From: a virus
Strand: one strand, 5' to 3'
Length of the DNA stretch: 64,000 nucleotides
Virus record (IMG/VR): IMGVR_UViG_3300005530_000004
Location: 10,873 to 74,872 of that record
Part shown: piece after piece, positions 30,791 to 43,009 of the stretch
How the letters are laid out: every line of letters starts with the position of its first letter
Position numbering within the stretch: position 1 is the stretch's first letter
Position numbers and translations under genes: made by a program
Notes under the pieces: model-generated
The model's database searches: none
What the model was told of the DNA's origin: nothing
The model's input: only the letters and a program-made list of their open reading frames with translations

Positions 30791-31300
30791 TGCCAAGGTC
30801 AGAAAGTTTAACATTTACTGATGTATCAGAATTTGAAATGAATTCAATTCGTTCGTGGGTTGGTAGAAAAGAACAATCATTATTTATGGGCGAGCTACAT
30901 CGTGAACGACTACTAAAAGAAATTGATCGTTTAAATAATTTACTTGAAGAAGTGTCTACTGTCTATAAGGATTAAATTCTGATGGGATTCTATATTAATC
31001 CACCAAATGAAACTAAAGAATCTTTCTTAAAAAGAGAAGGTCTACCTATTGAATATCCATTCACTTGGGATGATATTTTAGATGATTATCTTCCTGTAAT
31101 ATTAATAAATAATGGTGTATTTAATGCTGCTGGAATTGCATATTGTGAAGATAAATTAAATGTTTTTTGTGATCCACGTGATCCTAGACCAAAAAAATAT
31201 TTTGTTGTTAAAATAGATAAACTATATGATGTTTCGCCAATACCAACGGATTTTGTATCTAAAAATTCAATAATGAAAAAGAAACCAGAGGAGAAATTCT
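30763..31300. repeat. 26-bp direct repeat flanking two small ORFs
   Basis: GAAAAAGAAACCAGAGGAGAAATTCT at 30763-30788 and 31275-31300. Confidence 0.9.
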
Positions 31301-32533
31301 AATGAAGATGTTAATTGATGCTGTTCGTTATCAACGTGAAAAAGGTCTGAACACTAATCGACATATTATCCGTAAATTTAAAGATGATTCAGAAGCTTTA
31401 AAAGAAGCTGCCGAGATAATTCGCACAGTAGTATCTGAATGTATAGAAAGAAATCTGCCCATAGACGATGCACTTGCAGTAATGCACATTGCTACTTTAA
31501 ATAATAGAACTTTAACTATCGAAGAATACACTAGAATAATTGAAGCATCGAAAGAGAATGTAGGCCCATCATTGAATAAAATTAGACAACATGATCGAGG
31601 CAACTCTGCAAGCCTCTATAAGAAAATAGACGAGCAACATAAAACAGAATTAAATACATTACGAGAGAATCTTACGGAGAACCATAGAAAAGAGCTTGAA
31701 GCACTTAAAGATCAGCATAGAAGAGATTTGGAGAAACATATATGAACAGCATATATCTAATAAGAAATAAATCTTTTCTTGATACAAATAGATATATTGC
31801 AATCTGCGCAAAAGATAGAGTTGATGCAGTTAGAATATTGCTGGAAACTTGTGGTTTAATAGTCAAAAATTGTCCTCATCCAGATATAGAAAGACTAGAA
31901 GGATTGAATTCTGGTTCGCATACAATTTATCGTGTATACTTGAATGATTCAAACCATACACAATTAGAGTTTCTGGTGACAGGATAATAGCTATGAACGA
32001 ATACATCCTTAGTCTATATTGTTATGGCAAGTTAAGACCAAATCAAGAATTACATATAAGGAATGATAGGGCATCAAATTCAAAGGATATAATTCTTGAA
32101 ATATATGATTATGATTATAAAACATATAGATCATATAGAGCCTTTAGACGTGTACCAATAGAACAATTAAAGCTGTCTACTATTGATCTTATTGAATATA
32201 CAATAAACAATATGCTTGAAGAGATAGAAAAAGAATATGAAAAACGCTAAAAACAACAAACATAAAAATAATGCTAAAAACAACGCTAAAAACAACGCTA
32301 AAAACATTCGTCAAGCCTATAACGAACTAGAAAATCGTTATAGGCTTCTTGCAGATGCACATTTAATTCTGCAACGCACAATGAAGCTGATACTAATATC
32401 TCAGAAACAAAGTCCGCCTATGCTTTCTTATTCAAATAAAGAAGCAGAATATTACACTCTCCATGAATTAGATGATATGCGATTACAAGTAAGAGAAAAT
32501 GAAGAATTAAATAGAATGGAGATAAGTATTTAA
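30790..32533 (+). other. cluster of six small hypothetical CDSs (30790-30975, 30982-31302, 31302-31745, 31742-31987, 31993-32250, 32237-32533)
   Basis: Overlapping start/stop codons, SD-like motifs. Confidence 0.6.
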
Positions 32534-32534
32534 T

Positions 32535-34793
32535 ATGAGCGAGCCAGCACAGCAGCAATCCTTATCAGATATATTTGAAGAATTTGATAATATATTTGAG
32601 AAGAAAAAACGAAAGAAAAAAGATGTATTCACTAAAACAATATCTGTAAAAGAAATGGAGGCTTCGCATGATATTAGATTTGCACAAGCTGCTTCTACTT
32701 CTACTTCTACTTCTACTTCTACTTCTATTCCTAAAAGCAACGGAGGTTTAATTTGTTACAACGATTCTTATGAACGAGTTCTTCGAGGAATAATTGGTGC
32801 TGAGACAATATTTCTCGATTTAGAAACTGGCAGCTATGATCCTAAAATAACTTCATTAGATCCTTGGAAAAATTGTTGGCCAATAGGTGTAGCAATTTGT
32901 GTAGAAGAATATGGGCCAGCTTACTATATTCCAATAAATAAAGACAACGAAAATAAAGTCTATGATCTAATATTTGCAATATTTCACCATCCAAACTGCA
33001 AGCGGTGGGTAAATCACAACGTAAAATATGATGCTCACGTATTAAAGAATTCTGGTGGAATTACACTACCGTATTCGGTGCAGTTAATCGACACTGTAAC
33101 ATTGTCTAAACTTATTGATTCAGATAGATTTAGATATGGCTTGGATATATTATCAAAAGATTGGTTAGACGAAGATATATCACAATATGAACTTGCATTC
33201 AAACCATACTTACATAAAAATAAAGACTACTCTGTAATACCAGTAGATATTATTGGGCCATATGCTTGTCAAGATGTTATTACAAATAGGAAGTTATATA
33301 AATATATTTGTGAGAATCTCCCAGAAGAGTGCTATTTTGTTCGTGATATAGAAATAGAATTGACAAGAGTTCTATTTGATATTGAACAAAATGGAATGCG
33401 AATAGATCCAGACAGTTTGCAGATAACAGAGGTTCTTAACTATAAAAAACTAATAGAAATAGAAGAAGAACTAGAACGCATTACGGGCAGGATTTTCCGT
33501 CCGCATACAAATGCAGATTGCTTTGACATTATATGTAACTTTTATGGTTTACCAGTTCTTAAATGGACAAATCAATCTGATGATGAAGAAGTAGAAGTAG
33601 ATGAAGCGGAAAATGAAGATGAAGGAAAAAAAGGAAAAGGTGGTCCAAGTTTCGACAAGTTTGCTTTAACAGCATATTTATCTCATCCGACTGTACTAAC
33701 AAACCCAAATATAAGACGGGTAATAGAATTAATATCTGAATACAGGAAGAAAAATACATTCAACAATCTATTTGTTAAAAAATATAGGGAATTGGCAAGT
33801 GGAAATTTGTTACATCCATCTTACAATCAATGTGTACGATCTGGAAGATTGTCCTGCAAGCATCCAAATGCGCAGCAATTAAATGAAGAAGCTAAAGAGT
33901 TGATATTGCCGTATGGTAATGAAGGTAATGAAGTATTCGTATCGTATGACTTTTCGCAAATTGAATATAGGACAATTGCACATTATATTGAAAGTCCATT
34001 ATTATTAGATAAATATAATAATGATCCAGACGTTGATTTCCATGAGTTCGTTGCTGAATTAGTTAGAGAACAAACTGGCCTTGAAGGAATGACAAGAAAG
34101 GGTGGTAAAACTTTAAACTTCGGTTTAGGTTTTAATATGGGGAAGGCAAAGCTATTAAAATCTTTGCGTGGCGTTAAAGATTTAATGGACAGTTTATCAA
34201 AAGAAATAGATGAAGCCGGGGTTCCTGAAAACGAAAAAGAATCTGTATTTGCACGAGAATCAGAAAAACGCGCAGAGGCAGTATTCAATGCTTATCATAG
34301 AACTTTTCCAGAAATGAAAAGAACGTCTCGACAAGCACAAGCAGTTTGCGAACAACGTGGATACATCAGAAATCTATACAATAGACGAAGACACTTAAAT
34401 AAGCAATTTGCATATAAAGCTTTCAATACAATAAATCAAGCCAGTGCTGCTGATTTGATGAAGGCAGCTATGGTTAAAATTGGTAAATTACTTAGAGATT
34501 GTAATGAAAATAGCAGCAAAATCCGTATTGTTGCTGATGTTCACGATGAAATATTATTCTCCATGCCAAAGCAGCTTGCAGAAGATGAACGAATTACACA
34601 TACTATTGCATATATTCTTGAACATCCTACTTTACCGAATAATATAGATGGAACAGAAAAGAAGTTGCTTGTTCCAATTCGTGTCTCAATGGGGATAGGT
34701 AATAATTGGAAAGAAGCCAGTAAATCTGCCAGAGTTTACAATTACGATAAAGCAGTAAGCGTTGAAGAGTTTAAGGAGATAATCAATGGATAA
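32535..34793 (+). CDS. polA: family A DNA polymerase with 3'-5' exonuclease
   Basis: FLDLET, NHNVKYD, YACQD; SGRLSCKHPNAQQ, DFSQIEYR, KTLNFG, VHDE. Confidence 0.93.
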   Translation: MSEPAQQQSLSDIFEEFDNIFEKKKRKKKDVFTKTISVKEMEASHDIRFAQAASTSTSTSTSTSIPKSNGGLICYNDSYERVLRGIIGAETIFLDLETGSYDPKITSLDPWKNCWPIGVAICVEEYGPAYYIPINKDNENKVYDLIFAIFHHPNCKRWVNHNVKYDAHVLKNSGGITLPYSVQLIDTVTLSKLIDSDRFRYGLDILSKDWLDEDISQYELAFKPYLHKNKDYSVIPVDIIGPYACQDVITNRKLYKYICENLPEECYFVRDIEIELTRVLFDIEQNGMRIDPDSLQITEVLNYKKLIEIEEELERITGRIFRPHTNADCFDIICNFYGLPVLKWTNQSDDEEVEVDEAENEDEGKKGKGGPSFDKFALTAYLSHPTVLTNPNIRRVIELISEYRKKNTFNNLFVKKYRELASGNLLHPSYNQCVRSGRLSCKHPNAQQLNEEAKELILPYGNEGNEVFVSYDFSQIEYRTIAHYIESPLLLDKYNNDPDVDFHEFVAELVREQTGLEGMTRKGGKTLNFGLGFNMGKAKLLKSLRGVKDLMDSLSKEIDEAGVPENEKESVFARESEKRAEAVFNAYHRTFPEMKRTSRQAQAVCEQRGYIRNLYNRRRHLNKQFAYKAFNTINQASAADLMKAAMVKIGKLLRDCNENSSKIRIVADVHDEILFSMPKQLAEDERITHTIAYILEHPTLPNNIDGTEKKLLVPIRVSMGIGNNWKEASKSARVYNYDKAVSVEEFKEIING

Positions 34794-34983
34794 ACAAAAT
34801 CAGCAATATAAAGCATATCTCGGCGATAGCGTCTACATAGATTTCGATGGATATGGTTTAGTATTAACGACTGAAAATGGTATAGAAACAACAAATAGAA
34901 TTTATCTTGAACCAGAAGTATTCAATAAATTAGAAGTGTATGTTAAAGAATTAAAGAAACAATTATTAGATGCGAGAGATTAA
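34786..34983 (+). CDS. conserved phage hypothetical protein
   Basis: YLGDSVY..FDGY..IYLEPEV; AAGGAG RBS. Confidence 0.6.
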   Translation: MDKQNQQYKAYLGDSVYIDFDGYGLVLTTENGIETTNRIYLEPEVFNKLEVYVKELKKQLLDARD

Positions 34984-35235
34984 ATAATGTATTTTTAAGT
35001 TTTTGGGGAAAGCTAGGGAATTAGCCGATATATGTACACTATATGTACATTTGTACACTATTTTACTGTACATTTGTCTATCTATCAAGAAAATAATATT
35101 TGGAAAATAAGAAAAATTTCCTGCTAAACAAAGTCAATTTTCTCGGGATTTTCAACAAAATATATTTGACAACGCAAGTATCATACCGGGAATGGTATTT
35201 GCGTCGCGGGCGCGGCCGCGCGAAGTAACACTGTC

Positions 35236-35329
35236 TCGGCGGATCGTCGGGCGACCGACGATCCGCCGACGATCCGCCGACGATCCGCCGACGATTCGGC
35301 CCGCTGCGCTCGATTAAATCGAGCGCAGC
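35236..35329 (+). repeat. GC-rich hairpin with GCGA tetraloop, 4x 11-bp tandem repeat, and second hairpin
   Basis: TCGGCGGATCGTCGG-GCGA-CCGACGATCCGCCGA; CCGACGATCCG x4 (35255-35298, last with one mismatch); GCTGCGCTCGAT-TAA-ATCGAGCGCAGC. Confidence 0.85.
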
Positions 35330-35368
35330 ACTTGCAAAAGATTCCTCAAAATAATCGTGGCAAGAGTA

Positions 35369-35397
35369 TTGACTTGCCGAATGAATCATGGAATACT
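35369..35397 (+). promoter_or_regulatory. sigma70-like early promoter
   Basis: TTGACT-N17-AATACT; GGCAAG..CTTGCC dyad over the -35; another TTGACA at about 35166. Confidence 0.5.
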
Positions 35398-35416
35398 TCA
35401 CCTAGTTGATTGATTG

Positions 35417-35430
35417 TGCTCTTTGAAAAC
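35417..35430 (+). promoter_or_regulatory. rrn-type boxA antitermination element
   Basis: TGCTCTTTGAAAAC about 20 nt downstream of the -10; matches the GYTCTTT(G/A)A boxA consensus. Confidence 0.65.
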
Positions 35431-35503
35431 TTGGTTAGCGCGGCAACGGTTCGACGGAGCTAGCTCCGTCCCTGCCTAATCAAGCTTGCAAGCCGCGTAC
35501 ACA

Positions 35504-35890
35504 ACCACTAGGCGTTTTATTGTGCGGCGTCGTGTTCAACAGGGCAACAGGGCAATGGTCGCCAAACAACACGACAACCACAATAAAACGGAGAGAACAA
35601 AGTGAACAAATACTTTGTAATTTGGACCTACGTTGCGAATTACGGAAACTTGGAAGTCTTCGCCGATAGTGCGGAAGAAGCTTCCAAGATCGTGCTTAGC
35701 TCTTTCAGCACTGATTTCTCGGAACGCGGAACGGTCTATGTTTTTTCCGAGCCGGAGTACATTTACAACGGCCGCGAAGAAACGAAAAAGCGGAAGCAAC
35801 AGAAAATCCAACAGGATATTGATAACAGACTCAGCCGATAAGCAACACGACAACACGACATGGACGCCGCACAATAAAACGCCTAGTGGT
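35504..35890. repeat. 28-bp perfect inverted repeat enclosing CDS 35602-35841
   Basis: ACCACTAGGCGTTTTATTGTGCGGCGTC (35504-35531) / GACGCCGCACAATAAAACGCCTAGTGGT (35863-35890). Confidence 0.95.
35602..35841 (+). CDS. small early hypothetical protein
   Basis: GGAGAG RBS, GTG start, GC-richer codons. Confidence 0.7.
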   Translation: MNKYFVIWTYVANYGNLEVFADSAEEASKIVLSSFSTDFSERGTVYVFSEPEYIYNGREETKKRKQQKIQQDIDNRLSR

Positions 35891-35896
35891 AACAAG

Positions 35897-36261
35897 TAGC
35901 TCACCAGTGATTTAATCCTGCCCTGTTGATTGTGTATCAAACGCCAAACAACACGACAACACGACAACACGAAGGATACAATAAAATGACATTGGCTAAA
36001 AAGCGTTTCGACGACAATGAAATCGTGAAAGAACACGAGCTGCCCTATCGACCATTCCGTGTCTCAGCCTCTTTGGAGAGTTTTTTTCTGCGGCTTGATG
36101 CCGCACAAATGACGCGCGAGAAATTAGAGTCTATCCAGACTCTAATCTGGCAAAAGCGCAAGGTAGAACACGATCTATGTTCCGCCGTGCAAAATGTTTT
36201 GAGGGGGCAATCTCGATAACAGGGCAACATAACAGGGCAGGATTAAATCACTGATGAGCTA
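35897..36261. repeat. 32-bp near-perfect inverted repeat enclosing CDS 35986-36219
   Basis: TAGCTCACCAGTGATTTAATCCTGCCCTGTTG (35897-35928) / TAACAGGGCAGGATTAAATCACTGATGAGCTA (36230-36261). Confidence 0.95.
35986..36219 (+). CDS. small early hypothetical protein
   Basis: AAGGA RBS, ACAATAAA immediately before ATG. Confidence 0.65.
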   Translation: MTLAKKRFDDNEIVKEHELPYRPFRVSASLESFFLRLDAAQMTREKLESIQTLIWQKRKVEHDLCSAVQNVLRGQSR

Positions 36262-36347
36262 GCAATCGTGCAACTAATTCGGTAAATTCTCGCGCCGAAT
36301 AAACTAACAATAAATGCGAGAAAACACTTTGTTTTGGAGACTGTACA

Positions 36348-37037
36348 GTGTCAACCACCCACAAGAATGCCCCCGCCAATCGTGACTCCGCGAAAGTTTC
36401 TGATCGGCCAGCCGAACAGAAAACCGAAACGGCCACGACGACGGAAAAGAGGCGTGGTCGTCCGGCCGGAAACGGCGAGAAAAAGCAAACCGGGAAAATC
36501 AAATATCCCGGAGTTGCGAACGGGGAAAAACTCTCCGTCGTGCCGACGGATTTCGACCCCGCCAAACACAAGCGATTATCTGCGGACAATTTCACTTCAC
36601 CCGCGCTTTTTGACGCGCACAAGGCGAAGCATTCCAAGCCGCGAAATTTCCACCCATTGCTTTTGAATGAGGCGGGCGAACCGGAAAACAAATTGTCGGA
36701 ATTCCCTTCTGATGTTTCGGTCGAAGTGAGTTACGATTATTCGCTTAACGGCGAAAAGATCGTCGCTTTCCGCCCGCGTCATTTTTCGGATCGTCGTGCG
36801 CTTGCAAAAGCTCTGGTTCCCGCGCTGCAAAAGCAAATCGCCGCGCTGGAAAAAATCAGCACGATGACGGACGATCAAATCGAAAAACTCGGCCGCAAGG
36901 AAGAGTTGAAGCGCGGCATCGAGAAGAAAATCAAGGAAGCGACCGGATCGACAATCAGCATGGAGATGCTCGAAAAGATGCTCGCAACTCTTCCGCCGGA
37001 GATGCAAGAAAAGTATGCTGCGGCGACGGCGGGCTAG
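36348..37037 (+). CDS. GC-rich early protein with AT-hook-like KRRGRP
   Basis: GGAGA RBS, GTG start, terminator downstream. Confidence 0.7.
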   Translation: MSTTHKNAPANRDSAKVSDRPAEQKTETATTTEKRRGRPAGNGEKKQTGKIKYPGVANGEKLSVVPTDFDPAKHKRLSADNFTSPALFDAHKAKHSKPRNFHPLLLNEAGEPENKLSEFPSDVSVEVSYDYSLNGEKIVAFRPRHFSDRRALAKALVPALQKQIAALEKISTMTDDQIEKLGRKEELKRGIEKKIKEATGSTISMEMLEKMLATLPPEMQEKYAAATAG

Positions 37038-37076
37038 TTGCTTGCGAATTACTTGTTTGGCGACAAGTTTTCTCGA

Positions 37077-37110
37077 CCCCTACGAAACAATTGTTTCGTA
37101 GGGGTTTTTT
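37077..37110 (+). terminator. Rho-independent terminator
   Basis: CCCCTACGAAAC-AATT-GTTTCGTAGGGG-TTTTTT. Confidence 0.85.
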
Positions 37111-37130
37111 CGTGCGCTGAAATAATACTT

Positions 37131-37236
37131 GCGTCGTCCAGGGAGCGAGCCAGCGTCGTCCAGGGAGCGAGCCAGCGTCGTCCAGGGAGCGAGCCAGCGT
37201 CGTCCAGGGAGCGAGCCAGCGTCGTCCAGGGAGCGA
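37131..37236. repeat. 22-bp tandem repeat x4.8 (iteron-like)
   Basis: GCGTCGTCCAGGGAGCGAGCCA x4 plus 18 bp, no spacers. Confidence 0.95.
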
Positions 37237-37601
37237 ATCCTAACAGCAGCTTGACGCGCTGCCGCGCTGTAGTTACACTGGCCGCACCGGGGCAATAGGC
37301 GCACCATGCGTCAAATAAAAATATTTATTTTCTCATTTAGCGGCGAGAAAAATAGATACAGTGAACAATAAAATGCCGCTTTTTCCACTGCACACTTCTA
37401 CTCCTCTTTTTTGGAGAAAATATAATCAAGCAATAATCCGACAATCCGACAATCCGACAATTCGACAATTATTTTTTTCTCTGAACAATAAAACATGCTG
37501 TAACATTGGAGTTGCTGCAAGCCGATCGGATCGACCAAAATAAATCATTCACGCAAATAATTCCTACGTAGGAATTAAAAATTGAAGGGATACAAAAGAC
37601 A

Positions 37602-38048
37602 ATGGAAATTACAGTAGAAAAAATTGCCAATTTACTCTTAAATCCAGAAAATCGTGATAAGATGCGAGAAACGAAAAATAGGGCTTGTGTAGAAATAGAA
37701 GAAGCCGCTAAGCAAATAGCTTTCCAGCGTAAAAAAATCGACGATGGTTTGATGCGACTCGCAGCCGCGAAAACGGACAAGGAAAATCCTAAGCATATCG
37801 AATCATATATAAAAAGCTTCAAGGAACGTCTTGAACGTGCTAAAAAAGAAATTGCAGAATGTCAAAAGCAAATTGAGATTCTGCAAGCTAGACTACCATC
37901 GGAAGCGCGGGCCGCTAAGGTAGAAAGTATCGAGCAAGAGCTAAAGCAATATGAAAGCAATGTTAATGCGCTGATTTCGCAAAAGGGAGAATGGACTAGG
38001 TTGCGAGATTTAATTTCGCAAGCCGAAGAATTAAGAAAATTGTCTTGA
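37602..38048 (+). CDS. coiled-coil hypothetical protein
   Basis: AAGGGA RBS, heptad pattern. Confidence 0.65.
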   Translation: MEITVEKIANLLLNPENRDKMRETKNRACVEIEEAAKQIAFQRKKIDDGLMRLAAAKTDKENPKHIESYIKSFKERLERAKKEIAECQKQIEILQARLPSEARAAKVESIEQELKQYESNVNALISQKGEWTRLRDLISQAEELRKLS

Positions 38049-38201
38049 ATATCTTGAAAACAGAAACAAAAACAAAATTCGAGAACCCGACATAATTCCG
38101 TACAGTAGTGTACAAAATTGGTACGGAATTTTGCCGCGTTTTCTGTCGAGTGGTATCGACGGCGCAGCACAATAAAACTTGTTTTGAAGAAAAGGAAGAA
38201 G

Positions 38202-38369
38202 ATGACATACAATCAATTACTAGATTGCATTGAAGCAATGACATTAGAGCAAAGAGAGTGTGATGTTACAGTAGAAATAGACGATGAATGCTATCCAGCT
38301 ACACTATATATTTCTGACGATAACCACGACTCTTTAGAAAAGGATCACCCTGTTTTGAAAGCAATGTAA
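38202..38369 (+). CDS. small acidic hypothetical protein
   Basis: AAGGA RBS before ATG 38202 (MTYNQLLD). Confidence 0.6.
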   Translation: MTYNQLLDCIEAMTLEQRECDVTVEIDDECYPATLYISDDNHDSLEKDHPVLKAM

Positions 38370-38371
38370 AT

Positions 38372-38424
38372 AACAGCCATGTTTCCGCCGCAACATAAAT
38401 GTTGCGGCGGTGGCGTAGGTTGTT
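38372..38424 (+). ncRNA. intergenic hairpin element copy A
   Basis: AACAGCCATGTTT-CCG[stem]CGG-TGGCGTAGGTTGTT. Confidence 0.75.
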
Positions 38425-38517
38425 TGCTATTTATGTTGTACTAGCAAGCCTACAATTCCGGCAAGTTGGAATTAAAAGAATACTTGCAATGAATCTTTTC
38501 CAATGAGGGAAGTTGTG

Positions 38518-38973
38518 ATGATCGCAACAAAAAAGACGAATGGACGTTTCTCACGTTTCTCGGAACAGGATGCAAATGATCTAGCAACGAATCTTGCTAA
38601 ATCTCTTTCGCATCAATTCTCTTTCCGCGAAAGCAAAGCTCTCGAAAAGAGAGTTGCAGCGTCTCCAGAGACGACAACAAAAAAGCTTCGATCTGGAAGC
38701 AAACTCTTTCAAATGCGGACAATTCTTTCGTCCGCCAAACGCGATAAATCTTTTCGCGTGAATCTGCAAGCCACAGAGCTTGCAGTAAAACTGTTCTCTC
38801 GCATGTTTTCTCGAAAACTTTGGCGAGAGAATATTGTTTATTCTCGTCGCGCCTGGTTGAACGGTTTTCCGGTCAACTATGACCAGCAAGATTTAATGCT
38901 GATTTGTCGTCGCGTTGCGAGAAGAATTGCGAGAAGAGTTGCTTCTAGCAATTGCTATGAAAATAGCAAATAG
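38518..38973 (+). CDS. basic hypothetical protein
   Basis: GAGGGA RBS, Arg-rich. Confidence 0.55.
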   Translation: MIATKKTNGRFSRFSEQDANDLATNLAKSLSHQFSFRESKALEKRVAASPETTTKKLRSGSKLFQMRTILSSAKRDKSFRVNLQATELAVKLFSRMFSRKLWRENIVYSRRAWLNGFPVNYDQQDLMLICRRVARRIARRVASSNCYENSK

Positions 38974-38983
38974 CTGATTCTGC

Positions 38984-39047
38984 AGACAGTCATGTCTCCG
39001 TGCTGTTATTTAACAGATAAATAACAGCACGGTGCCGTAGATTGTTT
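38984..39047 (+). ncRNA. intergenic hairpin element copy B
   Basis: AGACAGTCATGTCT-CCG[stem]CGG-TGCCGTAGATTGTTT. Confidence 0.75.
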
Positions 39048-39089
39048 TCTAGTTTCTGACACAATAAATTGAAGAAGGAGAGAAAGAAA

Positions 39090-39848
39090 ATGCAATTCGA
39101 CAATGAAAAATTAAAAAAGATTATTGAGAAGCATCGAAAATATTATCTTAATGAAGAAGGTGGAGAACGTGCAGATTTGTCCGGTGCAAATTTGTTTGGT
39201 GCAGATTTGTCACGTGCAAATTTGTCCGGTGCAGATTTGTCCGGTGCAAATTTGTCGCGTGCAAATTTGTTTGGTGCAAATTTGTTTGGTGCAGATTTGT
39301 TTGGTGCAAATTTGTCTGGTGCAGATTTGTCGCGCGCAAATTTGTCTGATGCAAATTTGTCGCGTGCAATTTTGTCCGGTGCAAATTTGTCGCGTGCAAA
39401 TTTGTTTGGTGCAAATTTGTCCGGTGCAGATTTGTCGCGTGCAAATTTGTTTGGTGCAAATTTGTCCGGTGCAGATTTGTTTGGTGCAAATTTGTTTGGT
39501 GCAAATTTGTTTGGTGCAGATTTGTCCGGTGCAAATTTGTTTGGTGCAAACTTATCCAGTGCAAAATTAAATGAAGAAACCAATATTACAGGAGAGTCTT
39601 GGAAGGAATATTTAGAAAAAGTTGTTCCGGCTTTACTGACAGCTGGCGGAAAAACAATCCAAGAAATTGTAGAATCTGGCTGTTGGAATTGCCATGAATG
39701 GCAAAATTGTCCAATGCACATCGCATTTGGAATTAATAATAAAGAGGACGGGCCAATTTTATTAAGGCCTAGGATCAAACAATTTATTCAATTATTTGAT
39801 TTTAATTTGATCCCATGTCCGGTTGTTCCATTTACTTCTGTTAATTAA
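39090..39848 (+). CDS. pentapeptide repeat protein
   Basis: About 26 A(D/N)L(S/F)(G/R) repeats; AAGGAG RBS. Confidence 0.92.
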
Positions 39849-39849
39849 C

Positions 39850-39910
39850 AAACAATCATGTTTCCGCGCCACGATATTTTTATATCGTGGCGCGATGACG
39901 TAGATTGTTT
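39850..39910 (+). ncRNA. intergenic hairpin element copy C
   Basis: AAACAATCATGTTTC-CG[stem]CG-ATGACGTAGATTGTTT. Confidence 0.75.
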
Positions 39911-39972
39911 TCTGGTTCTAGTTTCTAGTGGTTTCTGATTTCTGGCACAATAAAAGAAATGGAGATTGACAA

Positions 39973-40209
39973 ATGAAAGAAAAGATTGAATGTTTACTTC
40001 CGGATGATGGAAAAACTTGCGTCCGGCTACGCGGAAAGAATGGTAACTTTGTTACCATTTTGCCTTGTGGAACCGACGTAAATGGAAATGTTACAAATGT
40101 CGATTTGTGCAAACCGAATGGAGAAGTGTTGTATTGTGGAGTAGATATTGAACTGGTCAATATCTTTTGTGAAGAACTCGGATTGGAAAGAATCTTGCAG
40201 GAGAAGTGA
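39973..40209 (+). CDS. small hypothetical protein
   Basis: GGAGA RBS. Confidence 0.6.
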   Translation: MKEKIECLLPDDGKTCVRLRGKNGNFVTILPCGTDVNGNVTNVDLCKPNGEVLYCGVDIELVNIFCEELGLERILQEK

Positions 40210-40214
40210 AATAA

Positions 40215-40916
40215 ATGAATCGCGATGAATTGCTTGACACAATAAAAAGATTGCTTGCGCTTTCTAGCTCATCAAATGAGAATGAAAGCGCTTCGGCGCT
40301 TGCGCGAGCAAATAAATTGATGATGGAACATAATATTTCCATGTTTGATGTTAATAATGAAACATCAACATCAAATTATGATGAAATAGATGTTTATACC
40401 GCCGGGCGAGCATCATCAAAAGATCCGTATTTGTGCAGTATTCTGCAAGATTACTTCTTTGTGAAAGCGATTTATATTCCATCCGACGGTTATCAACGAA
40501 AAACCACGTTGAAATTTTTCGGTGATAAAGTAAATATTCAAATTGCTGTATATGTCTATAAAGTATTGGATATACTTTTTAGTGTTTACGCAGATGTAAA
40601 CAAGATTCAAGTAAAACATCGGCGAGCATATTATCAAGGATTATGCCACGGATTTAAGCGAAAACTTAAAGAAGAACGTGATGCAATGAATAGAAACATT
40701 GCAAGTAGTGGAACAGCACTTGTCTTAATTGATAAGGCGCTTGTCAAAGCATATAATAACAGATTTCCGACCACTAAAACAAAATCTGTTTCTAAAATGA
40801 CAATGAATGACCGTGCTTACAATCAAGGAATTGTTGACGCAAAAGAAATAAACTTGCGTCAAGGTATAGAAGGTACAAAAGGCACCACACAACCAAAGAT
40901 TCAAGATTGGAGTTGA
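40215..40916 (+). CDS. DUF2786-domain protein
   Basis: IKRLLALSSSSNENESASALARANKLMMEHNI; AYNQG..AKEINL. Confidence 0.8.
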   Translation: MNRDELLDTIKRLLALSSSSNENESASALARANKLMMEHNISMFDVNNETSTSNYDEIDVYTAGRASSKDPYLCSILQDYFFVKAIYIPSDGYQRKTTLKFFGDKVNIQIAVYVYKVLDILFSVYADVNKIQVKHRRAYYQGLCHGFKRKLKEERDAMNRNIASSGTALVLIDKALVKAYNNRFPTTKTKSVSKMTMNDRAYNQGIVDAKEINLRQGIEGTKGTTQPKIQDWS

Positions 40917-40918
40917 TA

Positions 40919-40975
40919 AAACAATCATGTCTCCGCCGTGCAGAATATTCTGCACGGCGACGGCGTAGGTTGTTT
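40919..40975 (+). ncRNA. intergenic hairpin element copy D
   Basis: AAACAATCATGTCTC-CGCCGTGCAGAATATTCTGCACGGCG-ACGGCGTAGGTTGTTT. Confidence 0.75.
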
Positions 40976-41008
40976 CTGGTTTCTGACACAATAAATGTAA
41001 GGGAGAAG

Positions 41009-42555
41009 ATGGTTATGTCTAATTCAATTCATTATTTCGGAATAACAATTAACAGAGAGGGTGATATAGTAGTAGATGATATTACTATATTTAGTCATAT
41101 AAGAGAAACAGCAAAATATTTAGGGTATCGAACACAAGATATACACCGAGATTCTCGTCTCCCTCAACTTGTAATTCTAATTGGCAATCAAAAAGATGCG
41201 ATCGCCTTTATTGAATTGATATAGGGGTGTAGAATTTCGCGGATTATGGCTAAAAAGATATTGCGTTATAGTTTCTGGTTTCTGATACAATAAATTGGAG
41301 AAGTGAAACAAATGGAAGAAAAAGAAAAATCAAGATTAGCAATTGGATTCAATTGTGAACAAAATTACACTCGTTCAATTTGGACTTTCAGCACTGATCC
41401 ACAAGAAGTTGCTAATCAATTTTCTATTGATGGTAATTCTACCACGTTAGATCAAATTCTACTTGTTTCTAATTCACAAGACAAAAATAATGGACCGATT
41501 GTAGTTAAGCATTGGAATCTCGACAAGGACTATAAATAATGGCAATTAAAACCCCATATTTAATTCAAAGATGCACAATACAGAAATTTAGTGGTAATCA
41601 AAAAGTTAGTGAATTTTTACAGTTTGATTACATGGGGTCGGCTGAATTTGAATTTGGTGCATTACCTAAATGTCTTCGAGAAATATTTTCTATTAAAAAT
41701 GACTTAAAAATCTTTAGAGTATTATATCTTAAAGATCTATATGTTCTTTGCACCGAGAGTAATATAAGAGAAATTGAAGTTTATTTATCAAGATTATGTG
41801 GATTAGGAGATATCCTAATCTTAAAAGAGCCAATCAGTATAGAAAAACTATTAAAAAAAGAAAAACCATATAGACGAGATAATTTTTGGATTGATATTGA
41901 AAATTATTTTTGTTTCTCTTTTGATAAAAAAGCTCTGCAAAATTTTAGAATTGCATTAGACAATTCCATTTCTTATATGGATAAGAATAAGTAGACAACA
42001 TGCACATTCGCGCTGTAATTGGCGGAAGATATACTAATGTTGTTTTCGATATTCCTGTTCCCATTGTAGATTGGCTATGGGAAGACTTACGCGAGAAGAT
42101 GTTGCAGAAAAGACGAATAAATGAAGATGCAATAAAACTAAAATTGGCAAGAGAAACATATGAAAAAGCTGCAAAGCTGCAAGCTGAAATTGCTGCCGAT
42201 TGTGCAGTAAAGTTTGCAGAGTATTCAGAAATTGATTCTGGATTGAAAGAAGCAGAAAAAGCGATGGGCGGAAGAGGAAAAAAACCGCGAGTGCGGTCGA
42301 GAAAAACTAATTACAAAAAGAAGTCAATGTATAAATTGAACGGAGAGAATTGAGATGTCTAAGATGATACTAACTGAATCAGACTTGAAATTACTTGAAA
42401 AATACAATGTTACACTTGATGGCGCAATAACTGAAGCCCCAGCACATTTTCAAAATAGTGATGCAGCGCTCGCTGGATATTGGTATGCAATGTACAAACA
42501 ACTCAAAAAAGAGTTTGATTATTACAAAAAGTTAATTGAAGATGGTAGAAAATAG
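41009..42555 (+). other. five small early hypothetical CDSs (41009-41224, 41303-41539, 41539-41994, 42000-42353, 42355-42555)
   Basis: GGAG-type RBSs, tight packing. Confidence 0.6.
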
Positions 42556-42591
42556 TCGATGATTTGAAATAACAATAAACAAATTTAATTT

Positions 42592-42640
42592 AATTCCCTA
42601 GATAATTATTATCTAGGGAATTATTTTTATTTTTATTTTT
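42592..42640 (+). terminator. terminator closing the early region
   Basis: AATTCCCTAGATAA-TTA-TTATCTAGGGAATT followed by U-rich tract. Confidence 0.75.
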
Positions 42641-42712
42641 GGACTAGTGTACAAGAAATTTTGCCGCTTTTGAAGGTGTGGAACGATGGTCATTTATAGT
42701 GAGGGTTTAACG

Positions 42713-43009
42713 ATGGTCGTTTGGAAATATGATATTTTATTAAAGTCTGGAATTCAAAAGATAAGGATGCCTAAAGGTGCAAAAGTATTAACAGCACAAG
42801 TGCAAAGAGAAAATGATGGTTATGACGATATTAAAATCTGGTGCTTAATTGATAATGGACAAGCAGAATTAGAATTAGTAGATCGACATTTTATTTTACG
42901 TGGAACTGGTCATTCATTCGCAGTTTCAAATAGTTATCCATTAAATTATATTGGAACAGTGCAAATTGATTATAGTGTTTGGCATATATTTGAAATTATA
43001 GGGGTGTGA
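42713..43009 (+). CDS. conserved phage hypothetical protein
   Basis: VWKY..MPKGA..GTGH..YIGTVQ..VWHIFE. Confidence 0.65.
   Translation: MVVWKYDILLKSGIQKIRMPKGAKVLTAQVQRENDGYDDIKIWCLIDNGQAELELVDRHFILRGTGHSFAVSNSYPLNYIGTVQIDYSVWHIFEIIGV

Follow-up and report, generated by a model that had tools for sequence, protein, structure and literature searches.

The early operon of phage T7 is transcribed by the host RNA polymerase, and its transcript is cut by RNase III between the cistrons, at local intergenic hairpins. Ribosomal RNA (rrn) operons combine a boxA element with leader-trailer helices of 27-44 bp, which are substrates of RNase III (PMC10250234), and a tether between boxA and the polymerase, formed by the Nus complex, has been proposed to bring the upstream and downstream arms together (PMC4807359). 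The boxA element acts on mRNAs too (PMC5725501). In Bacillus subtilis, long-range intramolecular mRNA duplexes are cut by RNase III (PMC11780869), and in the hbs mRNA of this organism the two untranslated regions pair with each other (PMC5737220). Here we describe a three-gene unit of a phage genome, IMG/VR record IMGVR_UViG_3300005530_000004, in which two small protein genes are each enclosed by a long inverted repeat behind a boxA of the rrn type.

The record is 74,872 bp long and is classed as complete with direct terminal repeats; the stretch analyzed here, the window, comprises its bases 10873-74872 (64,000 nt). The phage genome has a GC content of 33%, and nearly all long open reading frames (ORFs) lie on the + strand. 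The unit stands at the start of a GC-rich island (41-50% GC, ~35150-39000) and is directly preceded by the gene of a family-A DNA polymerase (32535-34793). An earlier note on this DNA had likened the layout to that of an rRNA operon. This layout was borne out: a promoter-like site and boxA are followed by a leader hairpin and then by two helices of rRNA-stalk length, each closed around one gene. We propose that the repeats form RNA-level leader-trailer helices on a boxA-modified host transcript, which would be cut by host RNase III. We regard this reading as probable, though by a modest measure.

Results

Two consecutive genes are each enclosed by a long inverted repeat

The first inverted repeat, IR1 (35504-35531 / 35863-35890), is complementary at 28 of 28 positions, and its loop of 331 nt holds one ORF of 79 aa. 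The second, IR2 (35897-35928 / 36230-36261), begins 6 nt past IR1. Its 32 positions comprise 30 Watson-Crick pairs, one inner G.U pair (G35928.U36230) and one C.A mismatch (C35904.A36254), and the loop of 301 nt holds a 77-aa ORF (35986-36219). The earlier note had listed a perfect 28-bp repeat, which is right in coordinates and pairing, and an unrelated 32-bp repeat, for which the coordinates and the 6-nt gap likewise stand. Within the 64-kb window, IR1 and IR2 are the sole long inverted repeats that are not of low complexity. By our own estimate, the chance of a perfect 28-mer inverted repeat within 3 kb is ~1e-9. The corresponding helices, H1 and H2, dominate the predicted RNA ensemble of the + strand (probability 0.96; z = -11.7). 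The features of the unit are collected in Table 1.

Table 1. Coordinates of the features of the three-gene unit, numbered from the first base of the window.
Feature	Position	Strand	Remarks
Unit overall	35369-37112	+	From promoter-like site to intrinsic terminator; three genes
Promoter-like site, sigma-A type	35369-35397	+	TTGACT, 17-nt spacer, TG-extended AATACT (TGnAATACT); 9/12 matches
H0 5' strand	35403-35417	+	Pairs with 36262-36276
boxA, rrn-type, TGCTCTTTGAAAAC	35417-35430	+	Single exact match in the window
Leader hairpin	35432-35486	+	Between boxA and H1 5' arm; predicted in full-length and nascent folds
H1 5' arm	35504-35536	+	28-nt perfect arm plus 5-nt extension with 2 G.U; pair probability 0.96
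Linker 1	35537-35601	+	A/C-rich, U-poor; two AACAGGGCA copies, CGCCAAACAACACGACAAC, ACAATAAA, GGAGAG ribosome site
Gene 1, 79 aa, GTG start	35602-35841	+	In loop 1; GC3 0.56; covered by RNA-library contigs
H1 3' arm and extension	35857-35890	+	Has a copy of the ACAATAAAAC leader motif
H2 5' arm	35897-35928	+	7 + 24 bp flanking the C.A mismatch; pair probability 0.96-0.97
Linker 2	35929-35985	+	A/C-rich; CGCCAAACAACACGACAAC, extra CACGACAA repeats, AAGGA ribosome site, ACAATAAA
Gene 2, 77 aa, ATG start	35986-36219	+	In loop 2; GC3 0.50; covered by RNA-library contigs
H2 3' arm	36230-36261	+	Contains AACAGGGCA
H0 3' strand	36262-36276	+	Directly adjoins H2
Gene 3, 229 aa	36348-37037	+	Third gene, outside the stems; GC3 0.61
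Intrinsic terminator	37075-37112	+	14-bp stem, 4-nt loop, T run; ends the unit

Inward of IR1 the helix continues as GUGUU/GACAU with two G.U pairs, and IR2 is closed by its G.U, so that the arms gain three such pairs on the + strand. The G-U pairing of arm extensions described before is thus present at these inner ends, while the mismatch within IR2 is C.A. Both products are enclosed by flanks of more than 17 bp, as in a processing stalk (H1, 28 bp; H2, 31 pairs in 32 positions). The enclosed products do not look like stable RNAs: each loop contains an ORF with a ribosome site (79 and 77 codons), and no Rfam family was found within 34-40 kb of the window.

Several short motifs recur in the arms and loops. 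The H1 5' arm includes the reverse complement of the leader motif ACAATAAA, and the H1 3' arm is a variant of the CAACACGAC...ACAATAAAAC module that is found before genes 1 and 2, the 5' arm being its inverse. AACAGGGCA is present in the H2 arms and twice in loop 1, with four copies on the + strand and one on the - strand.

A boxA of the 16S type lies in the predicted leader

The predicted transcription start lies near 35404, downstream of a promoter-like site that is consistent with a Gram-positive extended -10 promoter and ends 19 nt upstream of boxA. The boxA element starts ~13 nt past this predicted start and ends 73 nt before the H1 arm. The structured leader that had been suggested corresponds to the predicted hairpin between boxA and H1.

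To place the boxA, one genome per prokaryote species was scanned for the exact 14-mer, and 120 stretches were returned. At least 20 of these 120 have a common rrn-leader context consisting of a short hairpin, the boxA 14-mer and TGAACAA; most of them lie at contig ends. Among the 80 stretches with an organism listed, this context occurs in Bacillus, Peribacillus, Brevibacillus, Paenibacillus, Oceanobacillus, Virgibacillus, Cytobacillus, Tepidibacillus and Veillonella. In the four Bacillales genomes whose contig runs on (L005, L010, L024 and L044), the 16S 5' end, as located with Rfam, lies 76-146 nt downstream of the 14-mer. Since the identical 14-mer stands upstream of 16S in Bacillales, the phage motif is a genuine Firmicute-type 16S-leader boxA. 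The boxA read from the sequence at 35417 is therefore exact in all 14 letters and is shared with the 16S leaders of many Bacillales. The boxA type, together with the strong GGAG ribosome sites, points to a probable host within the Bacillota.

Among the IMG/VR stretches with TGYTCTTTGAAAACT (n = 118), none is followed by a repeat that encloses a gene in a comparable way. A single long repeat in this set, in stretch L188, is a duplicated 5' region of divergent genes and was set aside.

Predicted outer helix, linkers and nascent folding

A third helix, H0, is predicted to join the 5' end of the transcript to the 15 nt directly after the second stem. It consists of 6 + 7 bp (13 bp) with two G.U pairs, at a pair probability of 0.95-0.99 and -14.6 kcal/mol. 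Among all 21-nt windows of the unit, the best partners of the transcript 5' end are those at 36256-36262. Because 20 of 2000 shuffles (1%) do equally well, H0 is suggestive as a real third helix.

Both loops carry A/C-rich linkers with words in common, as had been noticed earlier, including CGCCAAACAACACGACAAC, AACAGGGCA and ACAATAAA. Two exact copies of the 19-mer CGCCAAACAACACGACAAC (35560 and 35942) and one of 84% identity (35836) are present, and ACAATAAA precedes the start codons of both gene 1 and gene 2. The inner segment 35532-35601 is composed of A 0.44, C 0.24 and U 0.09, and linker 2 of A 0.49, C 0.25 and U 0.12; over the segments between arms and ORFs, U amounts to 5-12%. With so little U the linkers have little capacity to pair. 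Indeed, linkers and ribosome sites are unpaired in the predicted folds of both the full-length and the nascent RNA. The G.U extensions, H0 and the U-poor linkers fit a role of the + strand at the RNA level and, as far as the sequence can tell, would make sense only in RNA.

In the nascent fold, part of the H1 5' arm (35513-35524) pairs with a segment (35579-35590) that closely precedes the ribosome site of gene 1. This alternative hairpin of 12 + 8 bp ends 1 nt before the ribosome site and is predicted to be displaced once the H1 3' arm is transcribed. Such a fold would suit helices that form in RNA and act uncut, either as insulators, so that each cistron folds and is translated on its own, or as a timing switch, in which the 5' arm first pairs with the gene 1 leader and is then displaced by the 3' arm. 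The linkers and ribosome sites, unpaired in both states, agree with such a role, and a cellular precedent exists in the hbs mRNA, where 5'/3' pairing modulates decay without RNase III (PMC5737220). However, a perfect duplex of 28-32 bp is a generic substrate of RNase III, an enzyme present in most bacteria, and escape would need protection. The switch would also have no obvious output, as neither state is predicted to hide the ribosome site. We consider uncut helices unlikely, yet worth keeping in mind.

The search for other gene-enclosing helices in 35-43 kb yielded only a 15-bp helix with three G.U pairs (38418-38432 / 38961-38975). It lies around a 156-aa gene (38503-38973) and was not above background. 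A 17-nt inverted repeat whose arms lie ahead of the promoter and shortly behind the terminator, and so bracket the whole unit (35168-35184 / 37122-37138, 15/17), is at chance level (~0.3 expected). The flanking-duplex energy across all genes was uninformative, as its median is already -30 kcal/mol.

RNA-library contigs over the unit

The stretch was found in rhizosphere and soil metagenomes and in three metatranscriptome runs. Contigs of two metatranscriptome runs from different studies were compared with window positions 31000-43000. Loop 1 is covered by contigs at 35534-35851 and 35545-35868, loop 2 at 35924-36237 and 35938-36218, and gene 3 up to the terminator at 36258-37011 and 36263-37063, all without difference from the window. 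Further RNA contigs of one run lie at 37865-38031 and 38147-38342. As a silent control we used the 4.4 kb upstream of the unit and the 4.6 kb from ~38400 to 43000. In these stretches the sole RNA contigs were two short pieces with a poor match, both on a low-complexity repeat (33582-33636). The material is therefore RNA and not carried-over phage DNA. The contig depth of gene 3 (10-13, compared to 2-5 for the loops) was not used, since contig depth cannot rank genes.

In both runs the RNA contigs end at each arm or within 8 nt of it, and no arm is bridged. Contigs cannot show RNA ends, and the gaps would fit cleavage, a duplex that resists library preparation, or the low depth of these runs. 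The one DNA run of sufficient depth (X3) is broken here too, and the gaps were not counted as evidence of cleavage. Circularization, which the earlier note had raised as a possibility, is unsupported: there was no back-joined contig in the two RNA runs, and there is no RtcB gene in the complete 74.9-kb genome.

DNA-level explanations of the repeats

The repeats could also be DNA recombination sites, with cassettes that are inverted by a host recombinase and a gene that is off when turned against transcription. Perfect or near-perfect arms of 28-32 bp around ~300 bp have the size of known invertible segments, and recombination would maintain the identity of the arms. The complete 74.9-kb genome, however, encodes neither a resolvase/invertase (PF00239) nor a tyrosine recombinase (PF00589), which extends the observation from the sequence that no recombinase is visible. 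No inversion or deletion joint and no strand switch was present in the contigs of two DNA and two RNA runs, which is weak evidence since contigs drop rare variants. Two unrelated repeats would moreover need two specificities, and boxA, H0, the G.U extensions and the U-poor linkers would be left unexplained. Inversion is the least probable of the explanations considered here.

Alternatively, the repeats could be functionless, either as scars of recent inverted duplications of leader modules or as ends of small non-autonomous mobile cassettes that arrived together with this unit of foreign appearance. The derivation of the H1 arms from the CAACACGAC...ACAATAAAAC module and its inverse would be in line with this, and the perfection of the arms suggests youth. 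The same holds for composition: the GC content at third codon positions (GC3) is 0.50-0.61 in genes 1-3, 0.33-0.39 in the next three genes and 0.18-0.29 in the phage backbone. Because its GC3 is far above that of the backbone genes, the unit looks compositionally foreign and, with a promoter and terminator of its own, moron-like. Neither cassette, however, behaves like a miniature inverted-repeat transposable element (MITE) or an insertion sequence (IS). Target-site duplications are absent (flanks ACACA / AACAAG and AACAAG / GCAATC), and the arm sequences are not repeated elsewhere in the genome, nor does IMG/VR contain an identical stretch. Two independent repeats, each with one ORF and its ribosome site, 6 nt apart and with a third helix adjoining, would be hard to obtain by accident. 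We regard functionless scars or cassette ends as highly improbable. A retron is not indicated either, as a reverse transcriptase (PF00078) is absent from the complete genome.

The foreign composition could also be taken one step further. The unit might be a self-contained, horizontally acquired rrn-mimic module, from which RNase III would release a leader fragment that regulates later early leaders in trans; the first transcript would thereby set when those that follow are translated. The only antisense copy of ACAATAAA in the early region is the H1 5' arm. The best trans target, 38159-38178, is complementary to 35514-35533 at 18 of 20 positions, which would permit pairing in trans or over a long range. 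It stands immediately ahead of the ribosome site that serves the next small gene (likely true start ATG 38202, 55 aa, PHROG 1057). We regard this module with trans-regulation as quite improbable.

Genes of the unit and their relatives

Gene 1 has no Pfam or PHROGs family, nothing usable in Atlas and no relative among 5.8 billion proteins. Its single-sequence model (pLDDT 71) has a beta-beta-alpha-beta arrangement plus a long helix and is weakly similar to T7 Gp2, the RNA-polymerase-binding YkzG and RB69 Dmd (Foldseek E 0.7-1.8), which serves as a lead only. For gene 2 there was likewise no Pfam or PHROGs family, nothing in Atlas and no related locus in viral contigs. The gene 3 protein is basic and disordered at its N-terminus, where an RGRP motif occurs, and helical in its C-terminal half; its model (pLDDT 72) gave no significant fold match. 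Seven relatives of gene 3 were found at E up to 0.001, four of them with 40-53% identity and three weaker. The six that were looked up occur in Logan assemblies only, five of them on contigs of 1-1.7 kb. No fold search with the products of the unit reached significance. It is a reasonable guess that genes 1-3 encode small host-takeover proteins.

The search for relatives in which to compare the arms yielded nothing usable. GenBank phages gave no match at the DNA level and none to gene 3, and their closest DNA polymerase has 35% identity, with a gene order that is not syntenic. Viral contigs scanned at the protein level with gene 1, gene 2, gene 3, the DNA polymerase and the gene 3 alignment yielded no related locus, and two scans of metagenomes found none either. 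A match to gene 3 was absent from 401 genomes of the class Bacilli.

Exact copies of the 79-aa and 77-aa proteins are recorded solely on ~3.3-kb contigs (3314 and 3344 bp) and, as a 5'-cut copy, on a contig of 1053 bp; these short contigs may be transcript assemblies of the island. A 2258-bp contig carries a 92% variant, and gene 3 and the DNA polymerase are found on 74-kb contigs.

The neighboring early region

The leader motif ACAATAAA occurs genome-wide 28 times on the + strand and three times on the - strand, one antisense copy being the H1 5' arm; examples are at 35580, 35871, 35978, 36307, 37365, 37485, 38169, 39061, 39947, 40988 and 41287. It is found in almost every 5' leader of the early region, 0-35 nt before the ribosome site or start, and downstream in the region often as GTTTCTGAC-ACAATAAA. 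The three promoter-like sites in the island (35369, 37251 and 37462) are preceded by tandem repeats (35244-35298, 11 nt x4; 37131-37240, 22 nt x5; 37435-37466, 8 nt x3), which could be regulator-binding sites or iterons. Variable GC-rich hairpins follow early genes (38380-38432, 38996-39060, ~39900-39946 and ~40950-40987), each with a conserved CGTAGrTTGTTT stretch behind it. They resemble leaky intrinsic terminators or sites of processing. The early genes also include that of a pentapeptide-repeat protein of 259 aa (39069-39848; Pfam PF00805, E 5e-40), which may act as a DNA mimic.

Discussion

In the reading favored here, the unit works like an rrn leader with processing stalk, yet it falls outside the rrn family, because the enclosed products are mRNAs. 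In the proposed mechanism, host RNA polymerase would start near 35404 and the nascent boxA (35417-35430), identical to that of rrn leaders, would recruit NusB/NusE and other Nus factors as it does there. The modified polymerase could then withstand Rho on the ~200-nt untranslated leader and on the C/A-rich linkers. These linkers may resemble good Rho-binding RNA, which would give boxA a possible job. Held at the RNA exit, boxA would help the upstream arm to meet its downstream partner, following the published model for 16S leader-trailer pairing (PMC4807359, PMC10250234). H1 (28 bp) and H2 (32 positions) would shut gene 1 and gene 2 into separate loops, the weaker H0 would tie the transcript 5' end to the sequence just past H2, and the unpaired A/C-rich linkers would leave each ribosome site open within its loop. 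Host RNase III, a cutter of perfect duplexes of such length, would sever the stems. Cleavage would free monocistronic messages with paired ends and detach the gene 3 message. Nus binding, cleavage and the effect on stability are what we infer for this unit.

Several observations weigh against processed helices behind a working boxA. Promoter-like sites are as frequent in the region as expected by chance (9 observed, 7.7 expected from shuffles), and the promoter noticed before, though present as a sequence, does not stand out from shuffled DNA. There is no boxB-like hairpin upstream of the phage boxA and no boxC as in host leaders. The letters shared between phage and Bacillales leaders are the 14-mer plus one T only; the phage therefore did not simply copy a host leader. 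The one mispaired position of IR2 reads C.A in + strand RNA and would read G.U in RNA of the - strand. Perfectly matched arms would sooner be expected of a young duplication or a recombination site than of an RNA helix of long standing. The strong intrinsic terminator stands at the end of the unit, and read-through of terminators is not obviously needed. No RNA contig covers the leader in the two RNA runs. The complete 74.9-kb genome has no RNase III gene, and cleavage would rest on the host enzyme.

If leader-trailer helices cut by RNase III are confirmed, the elongation switch through Nus and boxA, known from lambda, would not be all that phages borrow. The complete set of steps in rRNA production, with boxA-tethered folding during transcription, leader-trailer helices and release by RNase III, would here make protein messages with clamped ends, a natural and compact design for insulating and stabilizing single cistrons. 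Matching the boxA type to host rrn leaders would provide a handle for host prediction, and the unit would offer a short, easily mutated test substrate for the RNA-chaperone model of the Nus complex.

Among known systems, the rrn operon shares with the phage unit an exact Firmicute-type boxA shortly past the predicted start, followed by a leader hairpin, and two consecutive long-range helices of similar length (28 and 32 in the phage, 27-44 bp in rrn) with one product each. The upstream arm is near boxA in both (73 nt in the phage; 16S at 76-146 nt in four genomes). In contrast, the phage products are protein ORFs of ~240 nt with ribosome sites and not stable RNAs. The phage lacks a boxB-like hairpin before boxA and a second boxA; it has perfect arms and a predicted third helix around both cassettes, and the location is a phage genome. 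The T7 early operon is likewise a phage operon served by the host polymerase, and RNase III would in both cases yield single messages with structured ends. T7, however, uses local hairpins, whereas the duplexes described here are long-range and surround whole genes.

For boxA-bound Nus factors that act on protein-coding transcripts, the lambda nut sites and the boxA of suhB are the closest cases (PMC5725501). Lambda differs in that it needs the N protein and boxB, and the boxA of suhB represses translation (PMC5725501); neither has gene-enclosing helices. The hbs mRNA resembles the phage unit in that the ends of a short message pair and nuclease access is modulated, yet its pairing comprises 14 bp, governs access of RNase Y and J1 and does not lie in an rrn-like unit (PMC5737220). 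The RNase III targets of B. subtilis are similar in their duplexes across hundreds of nt, in the cutting of both strands and in belonging to the phylum suggested by the boxA (PMC11780869). They differ as cellular genes with imperfect duplexes, without boxA and without an array of one gene per helix (PMC11780869).

In the literature searched, there was no description of phage protein genes singly enclosed by such helices behind an rrn boxA. The earlier statement that no such arrangement is known holds to this extent, and is to be narrowed in that long-range RNase III sites in mRNAs are published (PMC11780869). Given these B. subtilis sites, the arrangement is a variant of a known principle (PMC11780869).

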